Positions 50,985 to 59,652 are shown, counted from the stretch's first letter. The stretch: DNA of 64,000 bases from an uncultured Gammaproteobacteria bacterium (GCA_964511375.1 CAZEEW010000002.1:36157-100156); one strand, 5' to 3'. Numbers and translations are program-made. The notes: generated by a model not told the origin, from the sequence alone.

Positions 50985-51121
50985 TCACGAGTAAAAATAA
51001 CCGTTTCAGATATAATATCACACCCGGGGAATAGGGAGTAAAGGGAGAAGATCAAACAGGTAAAAGAATTATATCAGACCGGAGGGTTTTAGACAAGCCG
51101 GGGATAAGCCAAATTTTCCCC

Positions 51122-51150
51122 TTGATTTTCTCAAATTCTTGTGGTATACT
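51122..51150 (+). promoter_or_regulatory. Promoter for tRNA-Val (TTGATT-17-TATACT)
   Basis: ttgattttctcaaattcttgtggtatact. Confidence 0.5.
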
Positions 51151-51172
51151 CCCCCTAGGTTTCGCGAAAAGG

Positions 51173-51246
51173 GGTCGCATGGCTCAGTTGGTTAGAGCGT
51201 CGCATTCACATTGCGAAGGTCCCTGGTTCGAATCCAGGTGCGACCA
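51173..51246 (+). tRNA. tRNA-Val (anticodon CAC)
   Basis: Hand-folded: acceptor GGTCGCA/TGCGACC, D-stem GCTC/GAGC, anticodon stem TCGCA/TGCGA loop TTCACAT, T-arm CCTGG-TTCGAAT-CCAGG. Confidence 0.8.
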
Positions 51247-51295
51247 CTGACCATTGAAAACCTCCAAACGCACCTTTCACAGCTAAAACTAATCT

Positions 51296-51802
51296 ATGCC
51301 AAAAGATATCCATAAAGAAGACGTTAATCCAGGCAAGGTTGTTTTTGAATGGACCGTGAAGGAATACGAGGAACAAGAGCGAGAAAGGCGCTGGTACTAC
51401 CTCATGGGAGTAATTGCAGTCGCCCTAGTCGTCTATGCGTTAATCGCTCAAAATTATTTGTTTGCTCTTGTCGTGGTACTTTTCGGCATCATCCTGTTCT
51501 TACAGGATATACAAAAGCCCAAAGAAGTATATTTCGCCCTTACTCAAAGTGGTATAATTGTGAGTTCCAGGTTTTACCGCTTTAGCGAAATAAAGAATTT
51601 TTGGTTGATATATAATCCACCAACGGTAAAGAATCTTTACTTCTCTTTAAATAGTGTGGTAAAGCATCGTTTACAGGTACCGCTTTTGGATTATGATCCC
51701 CGGCCGATTCGGGACTTCCTAAAACAGTATTTAGAGGAAGATCTTGAACAAGAAGATGAACCAGTAAGTGACAAGTTGGGTAGAATTTTAAAATTACACT
51801 AA
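51296..51802 (+). CDS. Hypothetical two-TM membrane protein (168 aa) flanked by tRNA genes
   Basis: Central hydrophobic hairpin; no known motif. Confidence 0.5.
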   Translation: MPKDIHKEDVNPGKVVFEWTVKEYEEQERERRWYYLMGVIAVALVVYALIAQNYLFALVVVLFGIILFLQDIQKPKEVYFALTQSGIIVSSRFYRFSEIKNFWLIYNPPTVKNLYFSLNSVVKHRLQVPLLDYDPRPIRDFLKQYLEEDLEQEDEPVSDKLGRILKLH

Positions 51803-51813
51803 TTACATAGTAC

Positions 51814-51885
51814 GCACCCGTCGTTCAACGGATAGGACACTGGCCTGCGAAGCCGGAAATTTAGGTTCGATTCCTAACGGGTGCA
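51814..51885 (+). tRNA. tRNA-Arg (anticodon read as GCG)
   Basis: Hand-folded: acceptor GCACCCG/CGGGTGC, anticodon stem CTGGC/GCCGG loop CTGCGAA, T-arm TTAGG-TTCGATT-CCTAA. Confidence 0.65.
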
Positions 51886-51995
51886 CTAAAAATGACGCTG
51901 TAAGGCGTTATTTTTATTATCTGTTTGATCTTTAAGATTTAATAAGCTAAAATCATTTTGGAATAAACTGGAACCTTTGGTTGTATTAAACTAAT

Positions 51996-52565
51996 ATGGA
52001 GACCAACCTAACGGACGAAGAGCTAATTGAAGAAATACGCGCTAAAGACAAAGAATTATACAGTGAAATTATTCGGCGCTATGAGACTAAGCTAGCCCAT
52101 TATTTGCGCAAGTTTTTTCGTGATAGCGACCAGTTGGCAGATGTTTTACAAGAGGTGTTCATTAAAGCTTATAGGAATTTGTATGGCTTTGACATAAAAA
52201 AACGTTTCTCCCCCTGGATCTACCGCATTGCGCACAATGAAGCCTTAAATCATATTAAAAAAAATCGTCGGGAATCAGTTTCCTTGGACGAATCGGAGTG
52301 GGAAATTATTGATGAAGATATTGATTTGAAAAAAGAAGTTGATGCTACTTTGTTAAAAGAGAAAATGGAGGTCGCTTTGCTGAGAATTAAAGAAAAATAC
52401 CGCGAACCAATTATATTGTATTATTTTGAACAAAAAACTTATGAAGAAATTTCCGACATCCTGCGTTTGCCTCGTAATACCGTCGGCACCCTAATTATGC
52501 GCGGAAAAAAAATGTTAAAAGAATTTTTGTTACAAGAAATGTATGGAGTCAAAACAAAATCCTAA
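51996..52565 (+). CDS. RNA polymerase ECF-type sigma factor (sigma-70 regions 2 and 4)
   Basis: Region 2 YRIAHNEALNHIKKNRR; region 4 HTH EISDILRLPRNTVGTLIMRGKKMLKE. Confidence 0.85.
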   Translation: METNLTDEELIEEIRAKDKELYSEIIRRYETKLAHYLRKFFRDSDQLADVLQEVFIKAYRNLYGFDIKKRFSPWIYRIAHNEALNHIKKNRRESVSLDESEWEIIDEDIDLKKEVDATLLKEKMEVALLRIKEKYREPIILYYFEQKTYEEISDILRLPRNTVGTLIMRGKKMLKEFLLQEMYGVKTKS

Positions 52566-53358
52566 CCTGGAAGATCAGGTGATGGGAAAAATTAAATGCG
52601 GACAGGTTAAGTTACGATCACGTTATATTTTTCTCGCCGAAAAGCTTGGTATCGGAAGCGTGTTAGTATTTACGGTATTACTCGCTGTGTTGCTTTTTTC
52701 GCTGGCCCTTTTTTATCTTCAGGCCACTGACAATTTGTGGTACTTAAGTTTTGGGTCTCGAGGTATCTATGCTTTTTTGGAATCATTTCCGTACTTTTTA
52801 GTAGTATGTCTAGTTCTAGTTATACTTTTATCTGGTTGGATTTTAAAAAAGAGCGGAGTTTTTTACCAAAAACCGTTCACTTATTCAATCATTGGCCTTC
52901 TGTGTCTAATATTTTTTGTCGGAACAGCTCTGGCTTTTACCGGTTTATCTGAAAAGATTGAAAATGAAACTTTTAGCAACGGTGATGCAGCAATATTTTT
53001 CCGGCCTTTCATTGGTCATGGAATAAAGCAGCGACAAAAAGGAACCGCCGGTAAGATTATTGAGGTGGGGGATGGGTATATACAGATTCAAACGCCGGCT
53101 TGTCAAAAGAAAGTATACTTAAACCGTCTAGTTCGACCGCTAGAAACAGATCTTAAACCAGGAATGTTTGTGGTGGCCGTGGGTGGACATGATGGCCCTG
53201 AATTTGTTGCTTATGACATGCGTATACTGGCCGAAGAGGATCTCCCAATGATCAAACGTGGCATTAGACGAGAATTTGGCCCAAATAATAACCGCCGCCC
53301 ACTTTTACCTTGCGGGAGTCCGGAAAACAACTTTAAGACAAAAATAATTGTTCAGTAA
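52543..53358 (+). CDS. Polytopic membrane protein, putative anti-sigma factor partner
   Basis: Overlaps sigma gene 3' end; 4+ TM helices; soluble C-terminal domain. Confidence 0.5.
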   Translation: MESKQNPNLEDQVMGKIKCGQVKLRSRYIFLAEKLGIGSVLVFTVLLAVLLFSLALFYLQATDNLWYLSFGSRGIYAFLESFPYFLVVCLVLVILLSGWILKKSGVFYQKPFTYSIIGLLCLIFFVGTALAFTGLSEKIENETFSNGDAAIFFRPFIGHGIKQRQKGTAGKIIEVGDGYIQIQTPACQKKVYLNRLVRPLETDLKPGMFVVAVGGHDGPEFVAYDMRILAEEDLPMIKRGIRREFGPNNNRRPLLPCGSPENNFKTKIIVQ

Positions 53359-53375
53359 ATGTATTAATAAATTTT

Positions 53376-53771
53376 TTGGTTATGCAAAAATTGGGTTTGT
53401 TAGGAGGAATGTTGGTTTTTGCAACATTGTTATCTGGTTGCGGGGCAACTTCGCTCACAGAGCCAGTTACTTCGAATGCTGATATCAATAGCAATGCGGT
53501 TGTCACTAATAACAGTGGACAAACAGCAGCACCAACTACTTTTACCATGGATGACGTGGCGAAGCACAATGTCAAAGAAGATTGTTACACAGTTGTCAAT
53601 GGATCGGTGTATAATCTAACTACTGCCATCTCCTCCCACCCGGGCGGTCCGCTTGCCGTCATTGGTTTGTGTGGTAAAGACGGAACAGAAAAATTCATTA
53701 ATAAACATGGTGGGCAAGACGGACCAGAGGCTAATATGGCCAAATTAAAAATTGGCGAGCTGGTGAATTAA
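53376..53771 (+). CDS. Lipoprotein with cytochrome b5-like heme-binding domain
   Basis: Lipobox LLSGC; b5 signature DVAKHN…CYTVVNGSVYNLT…HPGG. Confidence 0.7.
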   Translation: MVMQKLGLLGGMLVFATLLSGCGATSLTEPVTSNADINSNAVVTNNSGQTAAPTTFTMDDVAKHNVKEDCYTVVNGSVYNLTTAISSHPGGPLAVIGLCGKDGTEKFINKHGGQDGPEANMAKLKIGELVN

Positions 53772-53788
53772 ATTATCACCTTATATAA

Positions 53789-53820
53789 TACGAGCCGCTT
53801 AAACGGCTCGTATTAATTTC
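53789..53820 (+). terminator. Hairpin acgagccg-cttaa-acggctcgt after b5-like gene
   Basis: 9-bp stem; weak T-run. Confidence 0.45.
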
Positions 53821-53930
53821 TCTTGAAATTTGAAATAAATTATTTTCTTTGTGTGTATTAATAGTAGGTAACCACATATTTGAGAGGATTAGTGGATACT
53901 GGCTAGCCATTTAATTAACTTAACATATAT

Positions 53931-54386
53931 TTGTCTATGAAGAAAAAAGCTTTAATTATCGTTCCTGCCATTGCTTTGTTTACGCTTTTTGGTGCTACGA
54001 CTGCCTTTGCCCACGGGGGTTTTGGCGGAATGTGGAAGTCTGACCCCGCTGCTGCCGCTACTCATTGGGAGAATATGATCAAAGAGCAGGCCGGCTTACT
54101 AGGCATATCTCAAGATGAGATGAGATCTAAGTGGGCAGAAGGGAAGACTTTAAGAGAAATTGCTGCTGAAAAAGGAATATCGGAAACAGATTTGCACACA
54201 AAAATGAAAGCCGCGCGTGAAAAAGAGATGAAAGAACAATTACAGAGTTTGGTTAGCCAGGGTAAATTAACTCAAGCTCAGGCTGATGCTCGATTAAAAT
54301 TCATGCAGGCACAGCAAGAGAAAATGAATGGGAAGAAAATGGGTGGTGGCCGTCATGGGGGAATGGGCATGATGAGGGGTCTCTAA
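53931..54386 (+). CDS. Secreted protein with His/Gly/Met-rich termini (HGGFGGMW … GGGRHGGMGMMRGL), putative metal-binding periplasmic protein
   Basis: Signal peptide MKKKALIIVPAIALFTLFGATTAFA; Met/His clusters. Confidence 0.5.
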   Translation: MSMKKKALIIVPAIALFTLFGATTAFAHGGFGGMWKSDPAAAATHWENMIKEQAGLLGISQDEMRSKWAEGKTLREIAAEKGISETDLHTKMKAAREKEMKEQLQSLVSQGKLTQAQADARLKFMQAQQEKMNGKKMGGGRHGGMGMMRGL

Positions 54387-54401
54387 AGTTTAATTTTTAC
54401 G

Positions 54402-54438
54402 CAAACCTTGTTTCTTAAAGAAACAAGGTTTTGTTTTA
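54402..54438 (+). terminator. Rho-independent terminator (aaccttgtttc-ttaaa-gaaacaaggtt-TTTGTTTT)
   Basis: 11-bp perfect stem + T-run. Confidence 0.75.
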
Positions 54439-54498
54439 TTGACCGTTTTGTAATTTTAATATATATTAAAGGCATTAGACCTAATTACAAGGAAATAT

Positions 54499-54897
54499 AT
54501 GCATGGTTACAAAGACAACATTGAAAAACTTACTTTAGAAAATGATAATTTTCGTAAAGTATTATATAGCGGTCCATACAGTCAGTTAGTACTAATGAGT
54601 CTTCGTCCAGGCGAAGAAATAGGTTTGGAAGTTCACACGGAGAACGACCAATTTTTTCGTTTTGAAGCCGGAAACGGTAAAGTCGTAATTGATGATGCTG
54701 AATACACTGTCGGAGATGGTGATGCCGTAGTTGTGCCGGCCGGTGCTAAGCACAATGTCACTAATATTTCCGAAACTGAAAGTCTTAAGTTGTATACCAT
54801 CTACTCTCCAGCACACCATAAAGATGGAATTGTGCGGGCAACCCGTGAAGAAGCGATGACCAACGAAGCAGAATTTGACGGTAAAACGACCGAGTAA
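54499..54897 (+). CDS. Cupin-2 domain protein
   Basis: Cupin motifs G-x5-HxH… (EVHTEND) and VVVPAGAKHNVTN. Confidence 0.7.
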   Translation: MHGYKDNIEKLTLENDNFRKVLYSGPYSQLVLMSLRPGEEIGLEVHTENDQFFRFEAGNGKVVIDDAEYTVGDGDAVVVPAGAKHNVTNISETESLKLYTIYSPAHHKDGIVRATREEAMTNEAEFDGKTTE

Positions 54898-54907
54898 AAT
54901 TAAACTT

Positions 54908-54940
54908 TAAAACAGCTTTACCAAAGGCTGTTTTTTTGTT
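54908..54940 (+). terminator. Rho-independent terminator (acagcttt-accaa-aggctgt-TTTTTTT)
   Basis: Stem + T7. Confidence 0.7.
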
Positions 54941-54967
54941 AAAATTTAAGTATATTTATCGCTAATT

Positions 54968-57076
54968 ATGCAGCTAAATACGCCGGTTGGCGCTTTAACT
55001 AGAGTAGGAGTTGCGACCCAAAAGTATTTGGCTCGCTTGGGTGTAAAAAATGCCCGTGATCTTTTATTTTACTTTCCTTTTCGGTACGAGGACTATAGTC
55101 GATTATTAAAAATCAAAGAAGTTCATGAAGGGGAGATAGTTACTGTAAAAGTCAAAATAGAATTGATTTCTAATAAACGTACCCCGCGTTGGAAAAAAAT
55201 TATTACTGAAGCACTAGTTTCCGATGATACCGGTAGTTTACGAGTTGTGTGGTTTAACCAACCCTTTTTAATAAAAAATCTTAAACCGGGTGATTTGGTT
55301 TACTTGTCCGGTAAGGTGCAAACTGACATGATTGGTCCGGAATTAGTTAGCCCAACCTATGAGAAAGTAACAATTAAGGAAACCGCCAATACTGCCAGGT
55401 TAGTGCCTATTTATCCGTTAACAGATGGTATTACACAAAAACAGCTTCGTTTCCTAGTTACTCAGGTCATTGATCTCGTCGAACGTTTAACCGAGTGGAT
55501 TCCGGATATAATTAGACAAGAATTTAACTTGGTTAAACTCCCTGACGCTATAAAAGGCATTCATTTCCCTGATGACCAGAGACATTTGGATCTCGCCACT
55601 CGGCGGTTAAAATTTGATGAGATATTTATACTTCAGTTGCAGGCTGAATTAGCACGGCGCGAGAAAAACACTATTACCGCTCCGGCGATAAAATTCAAAG
55701 AAAAAGAAATTAAGGAATTTGTACAGAATTTACCTTTTACTTTAACTAATGCTCAAAAAATAGCCACCTGGGAAATTCTCAAGGATACTGGTCAAGCTCG
55801 TCCAATGAATCGTTTGTTATCTGGTGACGTTGGGTCAGGTAAAACAGTTATCGCGGCAGTCTCTGTTTTGAACGCGGTCCTAAATGGTTTTCAGGCCACG
55901 CTCATGGCGCCAACAGAAATATTAGCGAAACAACATTTTGATTCTTTCACTAAGCTTTTAGGAGATAAAATAACGATCGCGTTATTGACCAGGAGTCAGA
56001 TATGTTTGCATGGTGCAACTTTTGCGTCTCAAACTAAAAAAGGCCAGAAAGAGGAGTTGTTGGCTAAAATAAGAAGTGGCGAAGTCGAGACAGTTATTGG
56101 CACTCACGCTCTTTTAAGTGAAAATATTGCTTACCAAAATTTGGGATTAGTGGTCGTTGACGAGCAGCATCGTTTTGGTGTTAACCAGAGACGAATAATT
56201 AAAGAAAAAGGGGAAGGGGTGCACTTTTTGAGTATGACCGCTACACCTATTCCGCGCTCTCTGGCTTTAATGTTGTATGGTGATCTCGATGTCTCGGTTT
56301 TAAACGAAATGCCGGTGGGGAGGAAGAAAATTTTAACTCGACTAGTGGAACCACATAATCGAAACAAGGCCTATGAATTTATTCGAGCACAGGTTAAAGC
56401 GGGCCGACAAGTATTTGTAATCTGCCCTCTAATCCAAAACAAGAATGGGGAGGAAAACGGGACTGAAAATTTTTTGTCTCCCTTTGCACTTGCCAATGAA
56501 AAGAAAACAGTCATGAGTGAATATGAAAAACTGTCTAAAAAAGTTTTTCCGGATTTAAAAGTTAACTATCTGCATGGAAAGATGAGAGGGGAGGAGAAGG
56601 AGAAAATAATGCAGGATTTTAAGAATCAGGTTTTTGATATCCTTGTTTCTACCTCAGTGGTTGAAGTCGGCGTTGATGTGCCCAATTCTTCAGTTATGAT
56701 GATCGAAGATGCCGAAAAATTTGGTCTGGCACAGCTGCACCAATTCCGGGGACGAGTTGGTCGCTCTGTTTACCAGTCATATTGTTTCGTCTTTACGAGT
56801 AATAGTACTAAAAAAGTCTTGGAAAGGTTAAAGTTTTTTGAAGCAACTAGCGATGGATTTAAATTGGCTGAAAAAGACCTGGAGAATCGCGGACCTGGTG
56901 AAGTTTACGGCACTGTTCAGAGCGGTTTAATGAATTTTCGCTTGGCGAAATTGACTGATCGGGATATAATAAAGTCCGCTCGGGACGCGGCTAAGATTGT
57001 TGTGGAAGGCTGGGAAAAGTATCCAGCCATACATAAGGAACTCAAAGAATGGGAGGATAAAGTACATTTGGAATAA
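54968..57076 (+). CDS. recG: ATP-dependent DNA helicase RecG
   Basis: Wedge domain, GDVGSGKTV, DEQHRFGV, 702 aa. Confidence 0.9.
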   Translation: MQLNTPVGALTRVGVATQKYLARLGVKNARDLLFYFPFRYEDYSRLLKIKEVHEGEIVTVKVKIELISNKRTPRWKKIITEALVSDDTGSLRVVWFNQPFLIKNLKPGDLVYLSGKVQTDMIGPELVSPTYEKVTIKETANTARLVPIYPLTDGITQKQLRFLVTQVIDLVERLTEWIPDIIRQEFNLVKLPDAIKGIHFPDDQRHLDLATRRLKFDEIFILQLQAELARREKNTITAPAIKFKEKEIKEFVQNLPFTLTNAQKIATWEILKDTGQARPMNRLLSGDVGSGKTVIAAVSVLNAVLNGFQATLMAPTEILAKQHFDSFTKLLGDKITIALLTRSQICLHGATFASQTKKGQKEELLAKIRSGEVETVIGTHALLSENIAYQNLGLVVVDEQHRFGVNQRRIIKEKGEGVHFLSMTATPIPRSLALMLYGDLDVSVLNEMPVGRKKILTRLVEPHNRNKAYEFIRAQVKAGRQVFVICPLIQNKNGEENGTENFLSPFALANEKKTVMSEYEKLSKKVFPDLKVNYLHGKMRGEEKEKIMQDFKNQVFDILVSTSVVEVGVDVPNSSVMMIEDAEKFGLAQLHQFRGRVGRSVYQSYCFVFTSNSTKKVLERLKFFEATSDGFKLAEKDLENRGPGEVYGTVQSGLMNFRLAKLTDRDIIKSARDAAKIVVEGWEKYPAIHKELKEWEDKVHLE

Positions 57077-57096: not shown

Positions 57097-59652
57097 ATGA
57101 TTGAATTTGGCCCTAAACCGGAGGGGCTAAAGATAGAAGCAAAAGAGCAAGAAAGGGTTAATGATGTCGCTCGGGTTTTTTTAGTTACAACCAGAACCTC
57201 AAGAGAGTTAACGCCCGATTATATCGAAGATCTAGGTGGTTTATCCCAAGTATTTTTAACAACTGGTTTATGGCTGGAAAAAGGGGAGGGTAGCGTTAAT
57301 GAGGGGCAGGTGATGCCAGTCGGTGGTAACAGAAAACTGAGGAAAAACGGTGAACCCGCAGAATCACTAAGAGCAACCGCCAGCCGCGAAAGTCGAGAAG
57401 AAGCCAGGTTAAATGTGGAGGAAAGCAGCCTCAAGGAATTGGGAGACGTTAAATATGTCATTGACCATCCTACAAAAGGGAGGTTAAAAATTAAGAGTCA
57501 TTATTATTTGGGTCGAATAAGCCCTCACGACGAAGCGCGTCAGTTGTATGAAGATGAAGACAAGATTCGCAATTTTTTACGGTTAGATGCACTCGGCCAT
57601 GCCACGTTGATGGGAGGGGTACGAGTAGACCAGAGGACAGAAGATGAATTCAAAGGGTGGGTCCGTGATCCCAGATTATTAGACAGTCTACAAAGTCCAT
57701 CCTTACCTAGTCGACCAAATTTATTGCCGACAAAAAATAAAGTGGCCCAAGCAGTTTTTGTAAACCCGGGTGAGGACAAGACCTTGACCACTGAAGAGAA
57801 AAAGAAGGCTGAAATAGAGTATGACGAGTCAGTACGCACCTTACAGATGAACTTAATGGTCGAGATGCAAAAGATCGAGGCAGATACAAAGCTTGCTATT
57901 TTAAGGGCTTTTTTAAGAAATTACCCACCAGAATCTGAGGAGTTAGAATACCAAAAGTTTGCACAGTTATTAAATAATAATGATGAAGAAGTATTAACCC
58001 CGGGCATCGTTGTTGGCGATCTTTGGCCTGGGATGATTAGATACCTTGAAAAAAGATATTCTAAGAGCGTGATACGCAAAAAATTTTACGAAGAGTTGGA
58101 CAAACAAAATTTAAATTTTGATGTTGAAGCAGCGGAGTCGCCGGCGGAAATTGTAATTAGATCAGTGTACACTCTCCTTGAATCTCATAATTTTTCGGGC
58201 GAATATTTTACGAGCAGTCGCCCAGAAATGAAAAAATTTGTTGAATCTATTATGAGGTTTATTGACGATGTAATTAAAAAATACGGATTAACTAAGCCGA
58301 AAAGACTAGGTCTGGCTGAGAAAATGGGCTACGTCAAAGATCTATTGGAGGATGTGGCGGGCGAGCCTCGAAAATGCGAAAAAGTTGAACAGATGTTTGC
58401 TCGCGATTTGGATTTACCCGAGAGACAGCTGGTTGAATTTAGAAACTCAGTTAATAATTTCCTAGTAATAATGGCGAATAAGATTATTGAGCGTTATCAG
58501 AGGCTACATAAAGGTAAAGCTGTCGCGGTCGACCCCGATCCTTTAAACGATATTAAAGACGGTGCGTTAGTTGATGTGATAAATGTTGCTTTGCCCGATT
58601 CCAGCAAGGGTGTGCGGCGAGATTGGAAAGTGCGAGAAAAGGTAGGAGAAGAGGAAGACGCAAAAAATAATTTACGACGAAAAGTTTTTGAGGCTAGACG
58701 TCTAATCGCTCTTATGTACTCCTTAAATCGTAGCTTTGATTTTTATAATCGTACAATTCTTAATGGTCGCGCACCAGTTGAGCGTATTTTTACCAGTTTA
58801 ACCAGTGGTGCAGAACAACGAAGAAAAAGAATAAAAATTGCGCAAGGTAAAAAAGGTGGATATATTGAAAATGTTGAGATTTTAAGTAGCGATAAACAAA
58901 GGGAGGAAAATAGCAGCCCAGTTGTTCTGCGTCAGGCCAGAGGTGTTTTGGCTGAATTATCCCCGGGCTTAAAAATGGAGGTGGATTCCCATGTCAAAAC
59001 TTTGCCATCATTTTATCGCAAAATACTACAATTCCGATTTGATGACGACCCCTCTACAAAAGTGCAAGACATATACCGTCGCGCGCTTACTCTTGAAAAC
59101 AGTAGCTTAAAACGGGTCGTAATTTCTGAAAGAATGGGTAAATATATTGCCGACGGTAAATTTACCATGGTTGAACCAAGATCAAAATTACAGAAAACTG
59201 TCTCGGCGGACGAACCAGACTACGAAGATGCCTTAAACATTGCGGAAGCGATTTTAATCGAAGGAAATCAGCACCCTGGGCAGCAGGTAAGAGTCATCGA
59301 TTATCGTCCTTGTGCGGCTGAAGGTGCAGGTTATGAAAGTCCATTTGGATCAGGAAGAATTCGTTTCAGTAAGTTTACGATTGAGCATACGGACGAAAAA
59401 GGTAATAAACGCTACGAGGAAGTCCAAATATATTTCCCAACTAGCGACGGCAAAAGTGCCTTTTATTGGAAAGAATTAAAAAAACGCGATGATGAATTCT
59501 TTTTCTTCGATCGCATTTTAAAAAGTCCTTACGCTCATTCTTTGGCAGATTTACTATTCCCGCCACAAATCTATGGAGAACTAGTGCATTTAGTGCACTA
59601 TAAGGATAAACAACAAGAGCTAGAAGATTTGATGAGTTTAAAAATTGGATAG
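57097..59652 (+). CDS. Large (851 aa) hypothetical protein with degenerate Nudix-like N-terminal domain
   Basis: N-term VARVFLVTT…GLWLEKGEG…GGNRKLRKNGEPAESLRATASRESREEARL (E-x7-REUxEE remnant of Nudix box); remaining ~700 aa unmatched. Confidence 0.5.
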   Translation: MIEFGPKPEGLKIEAKEQERVNDVARVFLVTTRTSRELTPDYIEDLGGLSQVFLTTGLWLEKGEGSVNEGQVMPVGGNRKLRKNGEPAESLRATASRESREEARLNVEESSLKELGDVKYVIDHPTKGRLKIKSHYYLGRISPHDEARQLYEDEDKIRNFLRLDALGHATLMGGVRVDQRTEDEFKGWVRDPRLLDSLQSPSLPSRPNLLPTKNKVAQAVFVNPGEDKTLTTEEKKKAEIEYDESVRTLQMNLMVEMQKIEADTKLAILRAFLRNYPPESEELEYQKFAQLLNNNDEEVLTPGIVVGDLWPGMIRYLEKRYSKSVIRKKFYEELDKQNLNFDVEAAESPAEIVIRSVYTLLESHNFSGEYFTSSRPEMKKFVESIMRFIDDVIKKYGLTKPKRLGLAEKMGYVKDLLEDVAGEPRKCEKVEQMFARDLDLPERQLVEFRNSVNNFLVIMANKIIERYQRLHKGKAVAVDPDPLNDIKDGALVDVINVALPDSSKGVRRDWKVREKVGEEEDAKNNLRRKVFEARRLIALMYSLNRSFDFYNRTILNGRAPVERIFTSLTSGAEQRRKRIKIAQGKKGGYIENVEILSSDKQREENSSPVVLRQARGVLAELSPGLKMEVDSHVKTLPSFYRKILQFRFDDDPSTKVQDIYRRALTLENSSLKRVVISERMGKYIADGKFTMVEPRSKLQKTVSADEPDYEDALNIAEAILIEGNQHPGQQVRVIDYRPCAAEGAGYESPFGSGRIRFSKFTIEHTDEKGNKRYEEVQIYFPTSDGKSAFYWKELKKRDDEFFFFDRILKSPYAHSLADLLFPPQIYGELVHLVHYKDKQQELEDLMSLKIG

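Follow-up and report, generated by a model that had tools for sequence, protein, structure and literature searches.

A patescibacterial family of ECF sigma factors with a membrane partner, and a member whose predicted operon includes a cytochrome b5 lipoprotein

In Bacillus subtilis, the extracytoplasmic function (ECF) sigma factor SigW is co-transcribed with its membrane partner RsiW, and the yknWXYZ pump operon is SigW-dependent. The SigW promoter consists of a -35 element TGAAAC and a -10 element CGTA (PMC5758882). YknWXYZ is a MacB-like toxin efflux pump, and pumps of the MacB type are known for peptides, toxins, and macrolides, not for metals (PMC4887032). A module of this kind was analyzed in a stretch of 64,000 nucleotides (the window; GCA_964511375.1 CAZEEW010000002.1:36157-100156) labelled as an uncultured Gammaproteobacteria bacterium. 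Here an ECF sigma gene overlaps the gene of a membrane protein, termed AS and presumed to be its anti-sigma factor, and a gene for a cytochrome b5-domain lipoprotein follows in the same predicted operon.

Besides the co-transcribed membrane partner, the locus shares with SigW a nearly identical promoter layout (TGAAAC-N16-CGTA in B. subtilis, TGAAAT-N17-TGTAT here). The SigW structure 5wuq is among the nearest solved structures to the sigma factor, and a YknX/MacB-type efflux pump is among the targets in relatives of the module. In contrast to SigW, the sigma factor falls well short of the SigW equivalog cutoffs, C is replaced by T at the key promoter bases, only a very small regulon is predicted, and the host is a patescibacterium. 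AS also differs from RsiW, as it crosses the membrane with three helices where RsiW has one, contains no zinc-binding anti-sigma domain, and carries an outer domain with an oligonucleotide/oligosaccharide-binding (OB) fold.

The preliminary description of this DNA had placed five same-strand genes at positions 51996-54897 of the window. All five open reading frames (ORFs) are present there on the plus strand:

51996-52565, plus strand: sigma gene, 189 amino acids (aa); ECF (group IV) sigma-70 family sigma factor
52543-53358, plus strand: AS, presumed anti-sigma factor and membrane partner, 271 aa
53382-53771, plus strand (ORF from TTG 53376; probable ATG 53382): b5, cytochrome b5-domain lipoprotein
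53937-54386, plus strand (ORF from TTG 53931; probable ATG 53937): MH, secreted all-helical protein
54499-54897, plus strand: cupin gene, encoding a cytoplasmic Cupin_2 protein

The module is real, and its reading as a regulon is upheld for b5 and MH but not for the cupin gene. The first gene had been described as a sigma-24-like factor overlapping a polytopic membrane partner, which the Pfam and NCBIfam domain matches and the overlap of the two genes bore out. The sigma factor matched Sigma70_r2 (3e-17, residues 25-92) and Sigma70_r4_2 (1.5e-12, residues 123-174) in Pfam, and scored 100.4 bits against the NCBIfam ECF superfamily model TIGR02937 (cutoff 42.9). With only the sigma-2 and sigma-4 domains in 189 aa, it has the composition of ECF group IV, a class of about 170-200 aa. 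It also has the co-transcribed regulator and the autoregulatory bipartite promoter of that group, with the bases AAT/TGT, not the textbook AAC/CGT. The closest solved structures were 8z6g and the sigma-H entry 6in7 (both 2e-21) and SigW 5wuq (4.7e-21), and RpoE 1or7 was also matched. The sigma factor stayed below every NCBIfam equivalog cutoff, including those of SigW (101.5 versus 209 bits for PRK09641 and 91.2 versus 243.1 for TIGR02948).

The start of AS overlaps the end of the sigma gene by 23 nucleotides (nt), indicating translational coupling. Because this coupling to sigma is invariable, AS is presumed to be an anti-sigma factor, a role suggested by its genomic and translational context. 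AS belongs to no Pfam or NCBIfam family, and no Pfam match was found at E up to 0.1 except a spurious one to PDR_assoc. An AlphaFold model (predicted local distance difference test score, pLDDT, 85.8; predicted template modelling score, pTM, 0.77) begins with a 12-residue N-terminal helix, continues with three transmembrane and two short helices, and ends in a beta barrel of the OB fold at the C-terminus. The two short helices hold YLSFGxxGxxAFLESFPY, the most conserved motif of the AS family, in a membrane-proximal position. The charge distribution suggests that the N-terminus is cytoplasmic and the OB-fold domain extracytoplasmic.

A search for a class I anti-sigma domain (the RsiW-type zinc-binding domain, with zf-HC2/RskA-type models) gave no match in AS, where the single 12-residue helix precedes the first transmembrane helix and the N-terminus holds just one Cys. 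The short class II anti-sigma factor CnrY is a small protein with one membrane pass and relies on CnrX as a separate sensor. As modelled, AS may resemble the CnrY type in its very short cytoplasmic segment, which could bind sigma and is directly followed by a membrane segment. Unlike CnrY, to which no sequence similarity was detected, it has three transmembrane helices and an outer OB-fold domain of its own. If it binds sigma, AS would broaden the diversity of known anti-sigma factors.

Sigma and AS together define a large family that has no annotation and comes almost entirely from Patescibacteria. A HMMER scan of 1.8 billion representative proteins yielded AS relatives in 1207 clusters at E<1e-3 and 296 at E<1e-10, mostly of 240-290 aa and aligned over their full length. 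A second scan, covering one genome per species and using the 12 closest AS sequences as the query, returned 80 loci (individual loci are given below by L numbers). Nearly all were from Patescibacteria, including Magasanikbacteria, Paceibacterota, Falkowbacteria, Kuenenbacteria, and Minisyncoccales, and a few were in bins labelled Aerophobetes or Clostridia. The pair is also carried by the cultured Minisyncoccus archaeiphilus (L086). In essentially all 80 loci, an ECF sigma gene lies directly upstream of AS and often overlaps it. In about 24 loci MH is found after AS, and in one organism (L007/L068) it lies ahead of sigma.

Full-text literature searches for ECF sigma factors in Patescibacteria or Parcubacteria gave nothing relevant, and the ECF re-classification paper makes no mention of Patescibacteria. 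Gene regulation in this group is almost uncharted, and the analysis supplies a sigma/partner family with a precisely defined promoter motif and a predicted regulon of small size, all of which can be directly tested in cultured relatives such as M. archaeiphilus or with reporters.

The module was also observed in a number of bins named "uncultured Gammaproteobacteria bacterium" (L018, L021-L024, L027, L035, L036, L042, L044, L065, L066, L068, L074, and L082). Among these, L027 and the close relative L002 are one and the same contig. These labels look unreliable, as the module is found elsewhere nearly only in Patescibacteria.

Upstream of sigma, the motif TGAAATAAA-N13-TTGTAT(T/A)A was found in 62 of 71 loci, where the spacing is fixed (rarely N12) and the spacer sequence is unconserved; the upstream region is otherwise unalignable across loci. 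A matrix of 32 positions was built from 54 loci, with the window excluded, and used to scan both strands of the window. Only two strong sites were found (27.7 and 23.0 bits); the third-ranking site reached 11.8 bits, and the maximum over 50 Markov shuffles was 17.0 bits. The two sites, termed P1 and P2, lie upstream of sigma and MH among predicted hairpins:

51887-51916, plus strand: terminator-like hairpin after tRNA-Arg (-14.0 kcal/mol, z -5.3)
51958-51989, plus strand: P1, ECF-type autoregulatory promoter, 27.7 bits (-35 TGGAAT at 51959-51964, -10 TTGTAT at 51981-51986)
53786-53815, plus strand: terminator hairpin after b5, 12-bp stem (-18.8 kcal/mol, z -7.1)
53830-53861, plus strand: P2, second copy of the ECF promoter, upstream of MH, 23.0 bits (-35 TGAAAT at 53831-53836, -10 GTGTAT at 53853-53858)
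54403-54431, plus strand: terminator hairpin after MH (-16.1 kcal/mol, z -5.0)
54439-54467, plus strand: sigma-70-type promoter of the cupin gene (TTGACC-17-TATATT)

The P1 site ends 7 nt before the sigma ATG. Because its -10 element ends 9 nt before this ATG, the sigma mRNA is probably leaderless or nearly so, judging from the sequence. The hairpin at 51887-51916 is predicted to insulate the operon from upstream transcription. AS and b5 are separated by 17-23 nt without a promoter or terminator, and b5 is therefore expected to be co-transcribed with sigma and AS. P2 comes directly after the b5 terminator, with about 75 nt between it and the start of MH. The following transcription units are thus predicted: P1-sigma-AS-b5-hairpin, P2-MH-hairpin, the cupin gene with its sigma-70-type promoter, and recG.

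The preliminary description had grouped b5, MH, and the cupin gene in one regulon, a grouping to be given up if the genes were separately transcribed with no shared promoter motif. It stood for b5, which is predicted to be co-transcribed with AS, and for MH, which has its own copy of the motif common to it and sigma; only the cupin gene is both separate and without the motif. The AAC-N16-CGT-like sequence proposed as that motif was not found in its literal form upstream of sigma, b5, MH, or cupin; the motif present upstream of sigma and MH is the T-variant TGAAAT-N17-TGTAT. The looser AAC-N15-18-CGT was likewise absent from all four upstream regions and has in any case a background of 0.73 per kb in the window.

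Two further promoter-like features were observed. Directly after the AS stop codon, TGTATTAA at 53360-53367 equals an ECF -10 element without a matching -35 (matrix score below 8), and may be the remnant of an older promoter position that predates the insertion of b5. Many loci of Paceibacterota have an extended -10-like element (TGgTATTAT or ggTATAAT) upstream of sigma, about 10 nt past the ECF -10 (L046, L051, L055, L056, L060, L063, L064, L078, and L083), a pattern suggestive of tandem promoters, one ECF and one housekeeping, for the sigma operon in these loci.

Across the related loci, matrix sites outside the training set were almost exclusively located just downstream of AS, and their targets were MH, a second small secreted family, and a YknX-like adaptor of a MacB-type ATP-binding cassette (ABC) pump. 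Among the hits of at least 15 bits, only one had no recognisable target and none was on the opposite strand. In 49 of 71 loci, this adaptor of roughly 600 aa is encoded no more than 4 kb behind AS, on the same strand. Often just 5-100 nt separate the two genes, which puts the adaptor inside the sigma operon. In the b5-bearing relatives L002-L004, MH is followed by adaptor, ATPase, and permease genes. A metagenome scan with the exact motif returned 78 sites with a downstream ORF, about 20 of which preceded recognisable targets: 12 sigma genes, two pump adaptors, one MH, and about five members of the second secreted family. No b5, cupin, or reductase target was among them, and the remaining sites looked like chance matches.

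The second small secreted family occurs in loci that lack MH, with one or two strong promoter copies upstream (L033 1571-2038, L043 2750-3160, L060 6224-6700, and L085 6214-6681; also L109, L142, L147, and L205). Its members have a signal peptide, the sequence AY(Q/R)GDPxVxGPNxTxERHEAMxxAFENxDYxAWKE, and a Gly-rich tail. The pump adaptors finish with a linker rich in Ser, Thr, and Asn and then a basic tail rich in Gly and Met (GGGGVDMMMMTR, GGAMMMMR, or GGDMMRMMR), as in the YknX-like ORFs of L012-L088 (for example, L055 5914-7695 and L080 6089-7975). At least two Met are present in the last 15 residues of 25 of 48 adaptors. This tail resembles the C-terminus of MH (54342-54383 in the window), so that two unrelated targets of one promoter end alike.

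The output of the family, an efflux pump together with small secreted proteins, looks like an envelope-stress and efflux response. Because this output consists of export or efflux and small secreted proteins, the family would represent a response to envelope stress or toxic compounds comparable to that of SigW. In the proposed mechanism, AS would hold the ECF sigma factor inactive until an envelope signal frees it. The freed sigma factor would then read the promoters of the observed motif. From P1, it would drive positive autoregulation through a nearly leaderless sigma-AS-b5 mRNA ending at the hairpin 53786-53815; from P2, it would drive MH, and the cupin gene would be transcribed separately from its housekeeping-type promoter. 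In most relatives, sigma and AS are followed by the YknX/MacB-type pump in the same operon or under the same promoter. The b5 gene would have been recruited into the sigma operon only in the small clade of the window, and its product would most likely be an induced, membrane-tethered, extracytoplasmic haem or electron-carrier effector. A sigma/AS switch with the P1 operon, the P2-MH unit, and a role in envelope stress and efflux is considered a fairly probable account of the locus.

Several points weigh against this account. The cytoplasmic part of AS is only about 26 residues, with a single 12-residue helix and no recognised anti-sigma domain. The conserved YLSFGxxGxxAFLESFPY motif is atypical of a simple anti-sigma factor, which hints at a further activity or partner. 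The window itself contains no homologue of the YknXYZ/MacAB-type efflux genes (tblastn, E<1e-2) and none of a Fre-like reductase or DoxX (tblastn), and the efflux link thus comes from the relatives. The T-tract behind the b5 hairpin is weak (ATTTCTCTT), leaving some read-through possible. Additionally, promoter use, transcription start, and termination are predictions.

The MH protein provides the starting point for the best-surviving alternative. As the preliminary description had noted, MH is a secreted protein with Gly/His/Met-rich termini: a cleavable signal peptide ending in AFA is followed by the mature N-terminus HGGFGGMW, and the C-terminus is GGGRHGGMGMMRGL. It has 47 homologues, and in the MH family the helical core is conserved (LLGISxDExKxxWAxGK...EIAxEKGIS...ITQAQADARLKFM), and the ends are variable and rich in Gly, His, Met, and basic residues. 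The AlphaFold model shows five helices with disordered ends, and a designed "CAP repeat" protein is the single relative by sequence that has a solved structure. DUF2680 (PF10925) was weakly matched by 24 of 37 family members, with a best E-value of 9.7e-6 and 16.8 bits for the window MH against a threshold of 25; a literature search on DUF2680 found nothing relevant. The P2-like arrangement precedes MH in 16 of 23 MH loci under a strict setting, and variants with TGTAGT or N12 spacing cover further ones.

MH resembles ZraP, CpxP, and Spy in being a small, secreted, all-helical protein encoded beside, and apparently controlled by, an envelope signalling system. The termini of E. coli ZraP (AFA/HGGHGMW...GGGGHMGMGHW) closely resemble those of MH, in both the mature N-terminus HGGxG(G)MW and the Gly/His/Met-rich C-terminus. 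It differs from these proteins in that its helical core has no detectable homology to them and in that MH is instead weakly related to DUF2680. By analogy, MH may work like ZraP. Membership in the CpxP/Spy/ZraP family itself was not supported. No Pfam LTXXQ or Metal_resist match was found, no family member appeared in a PDB profile search, and no structural match to solved CpxP, Spy, or ZraP proteins was obtained. The NCBIfam CpxP model PRK12750 gave 20.3 bits against a cutoff of 148, and hhalign gave a ZraP homology probability of 18% over 16 columns at the N-terminus only.

A metal-stress (Cu/Zn/Ag) regulon could be built on these likenesses, in which MH would be a ZraP-like metal chaperone, the Met tails of the adaptors would bind soft metals, and b5 would be a metal reductase or electron donor. 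The mirrored ZraP termini speak for it, as do the adaptor tails such as GGxDMMMMTR, the single LTXXQ-like motif in MH (LTQAQ, read from the sequence), and a b5 protein beside a Fre/NOX-type reductase in another patescibacterial contig. However, the similarity of MH to ZraP is confined to the ends, its CpxP score is far below the cutoff, no metal transporter or regulator is conserved in the neighbourhood, and MacB-type pumps have the non-metal substrates given above. A metal-stress role is thus possible but rather unlikely. The conserved outputs of the family are MacB-type efflux pumps and small secreted proteins, and the metal/redox label is a minority hypothesis.

The 5' leader of MH contains one further element:

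53901-53908, plus strand: palindrome GGCTAGCC with the core GCTAGC

GCTAGC was found between the ECF -10 and the MH start in 11 of 23 MH loci (the window, L003, L007, L009, L011, L031, L035, L042, L045, L049, and L072), at a background of 0.11 per kb, and GGGCCC occupies its position in L036 and L057. The palindrome may serve as an operator or as an RNA element. Folding showed no significant structure in the leader (z -0.6), and an Rfam scan of 51000-55200 found only two tRNAs and no riboswitch in the leader.

The b5 signature claimed in the preliminary description was confirmed by a PF00173 match of 5.2e-15 (55.7 bits, cutoff 23.7) that covers profile positions 1-73 of 74. The HPGG motif (H88-P-G-G) and H111 are invariant in eight homologues and align with the ligands of solved b5 structures, and the protein is, by its sequence, a classical bis-His b5. 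At the end of its signal peptide stands the lipobox LSGC (MQKLGLLGGMLVFATLLSGC; read from the translation), which conforms to [LVI][ASTVI][GAS]C, and a low-complexity linker of roughly 35 residues leads to the bis-His b5 domain. The matches in the PDB include the bacterial cytochrome b558 of Ectothiorhodospira vacuolata (1CXY), which the b5 protein resembles in being exported with HPGG and two axial His.

Such a heme-b5 lipoprotein had been called unexpected in this kind of cell. It is less so, as b5 domains are documented in candidate-phyla-radiation genomes and more examples were found here. PF01794 ferric-reductase domains occur in 1427 of 7645 of these genomes, 185 with a b5-domain gene within 10 kb (bioRxiv 10.1101/2021.11.17.468889), and cytochrome b5 was noted in Absconditabacteria (PMC8080830). 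The window b5 is thus one of a recurrent set of domains, often near Fre-type ferric reductases, but it is not the tyrosine-ligated MAPR-like type of the same study (bioRxiv 10.1101/2021.11.17.468889) and has no Fre-like or DoxX partner within the 64 kb. Unlike b558 and the candidate-phyla-radiation proteins, it is a lipoprotein, and its gene lies within an ECF sigma/anti-sigma operon. The occurrence of b5 in this kind of cell is not new, and the placement in an ECF operon is a local variation. It adds a regulated example to the unexplained extracytoplasmic b5 proteins of reduced bacteria.

The b5 gene is confined to the window and its nearest relatives and is absent from roughly 70 more distant loci. 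Exact or near copies were found on contigs with the same sigma-AS-b5 order (L001, L003, and L006), and this order is kept across lineages where AS is only 72-73% identical. By AS identities, the window is the outgroup to (L011, (L003, L006)). The window, L003, and L006 carry the gene, whereas L011 lacks it but is otherwise syntenic (AS-MH-cupin-recG, with a truncated sigma end at the contig edge). From this pattern, the simplest history would be one gain in the ancestor of the clade followed by a loss in L011. In L002-L004 and L006, the minus strand between b5 and MH carries a 341-aa Lys/Glu-rich gene without a Pfam match (for example, L003 1441-2466), and this gene is absent from the window and L011.

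Exported b5 proteins are common in prokaryotes, with 250 matches at E<1e-8 that include tandem b5 domains and fusions with DUF2231 or FN3. On another patescibacterial contig, a 438-aa gene of the NOX/Fre type (Ferric_reduct, FAD_binding_8, and NAD_binding_1 domains) is followed after 10 nt by the gene of a 280-aa double-b5 protein (L093 3675-5843; L094 922-3090), and the pair adjoins a YknX/MacB pump. This arrangement suggests a route by which electrons cross the membrane to extracytoplasmic b5 in these bacteria. In a contig of unassigned origin, a b5 gene was found upstream of DoxX.

Instead of an effector, the b5 lipoprotein could be a sensing partner of AS, like RseB or CnrX, that feeds a haem or redox signal to the sigma switch. 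Its gene sits in the sigma/anti-sigma operon, where rseB-type modulators are usually encoded, its lipobox would tether it on the membrane face predicted for the AS OB-fold domain, and it has been kept in the operon across diverged lineages. However, the distant loci do without b5, as does L011 of the same clade, and the slot after AS in relatives is normally taken by an effector, the pump adaptor. A sensing role is accordingly held to be improbable. More doubtful still is a broader version, in which b5, in a cell presumably unable to make haem, would be a haem-scavenging or redox-sensing partner through which host haem or the extracellular redox state tunes sigma, and the Gly/Met-rich tails of MH and the adaptor would be read as feedback by the AS OB fold; this feedback idea resembles the E. 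coli sigma-E pathway, where the C-termini of outer-membrane proteins act as the trigger.

Finally, the idea that AS is an accessory subunit of the MacB-type pump, at the YknW position of yknWXYZ, with sigma regulated otherwise, draws on its location between sigma and pump genes in many loci, its lack of a recognisable anti-sigma domain, and its unusually conserved membrane motif, but it is very unlikely given that AS always accompanies sigma and is translationally coupled to it even without a nearby pump (window, L011), that AS matches no Pfam family and hence not the Yip1 family of YknW, and that no other conserved regulator adjoins sigma.

The cupin gene is a recurrent neighbour and is not a predicted target. 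Its identity was upheld by a Cupin_2 match (PF07883, 1.3e-15, 57.3 bits versus 27.2), and its closest solved structure is BH2720 (2OA2, 3e-22). Motif 2 (G-x5-P-x-G-x2-H-x3-N) is intact, and motif 1 reads H-T-E where BH2720 has H-P-H. The protein has no signal peptide, as read from the sequence, and is therefore cytoplasmic, contrary to its earlier listing among envelope genes. Close homologues adjoin the module in L011, L023, L042, and L076, where sigma-70 or extended -10 promoters were again found. Membership in the regulon was rejected on the missing ECF motif, the sigma-70-type promoter (five of five carrier loci), the intervening terminator, and the missing signal peptide. A hairpin also follows the cupin gene (-12.8 kcal/mol, z -3.2).

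Among the flanking genes, an 851-aa ORF (57097-59652, plus strand) directly follows recG and has only a sub-threshold NUDIX match (residues 86-166, E 0.0016) and no NCBIfam family. The region upstream of the sigma operon contains one more listed feature:

51814-51886: tRNA-Arg, upstream of the sigma operon

Between this gene and tRNA-Val (51173-51247), a 168-aa membrane protein of no significant family, with two hydrophobic helices, is encoded at 51296-51802 on the plus strand.

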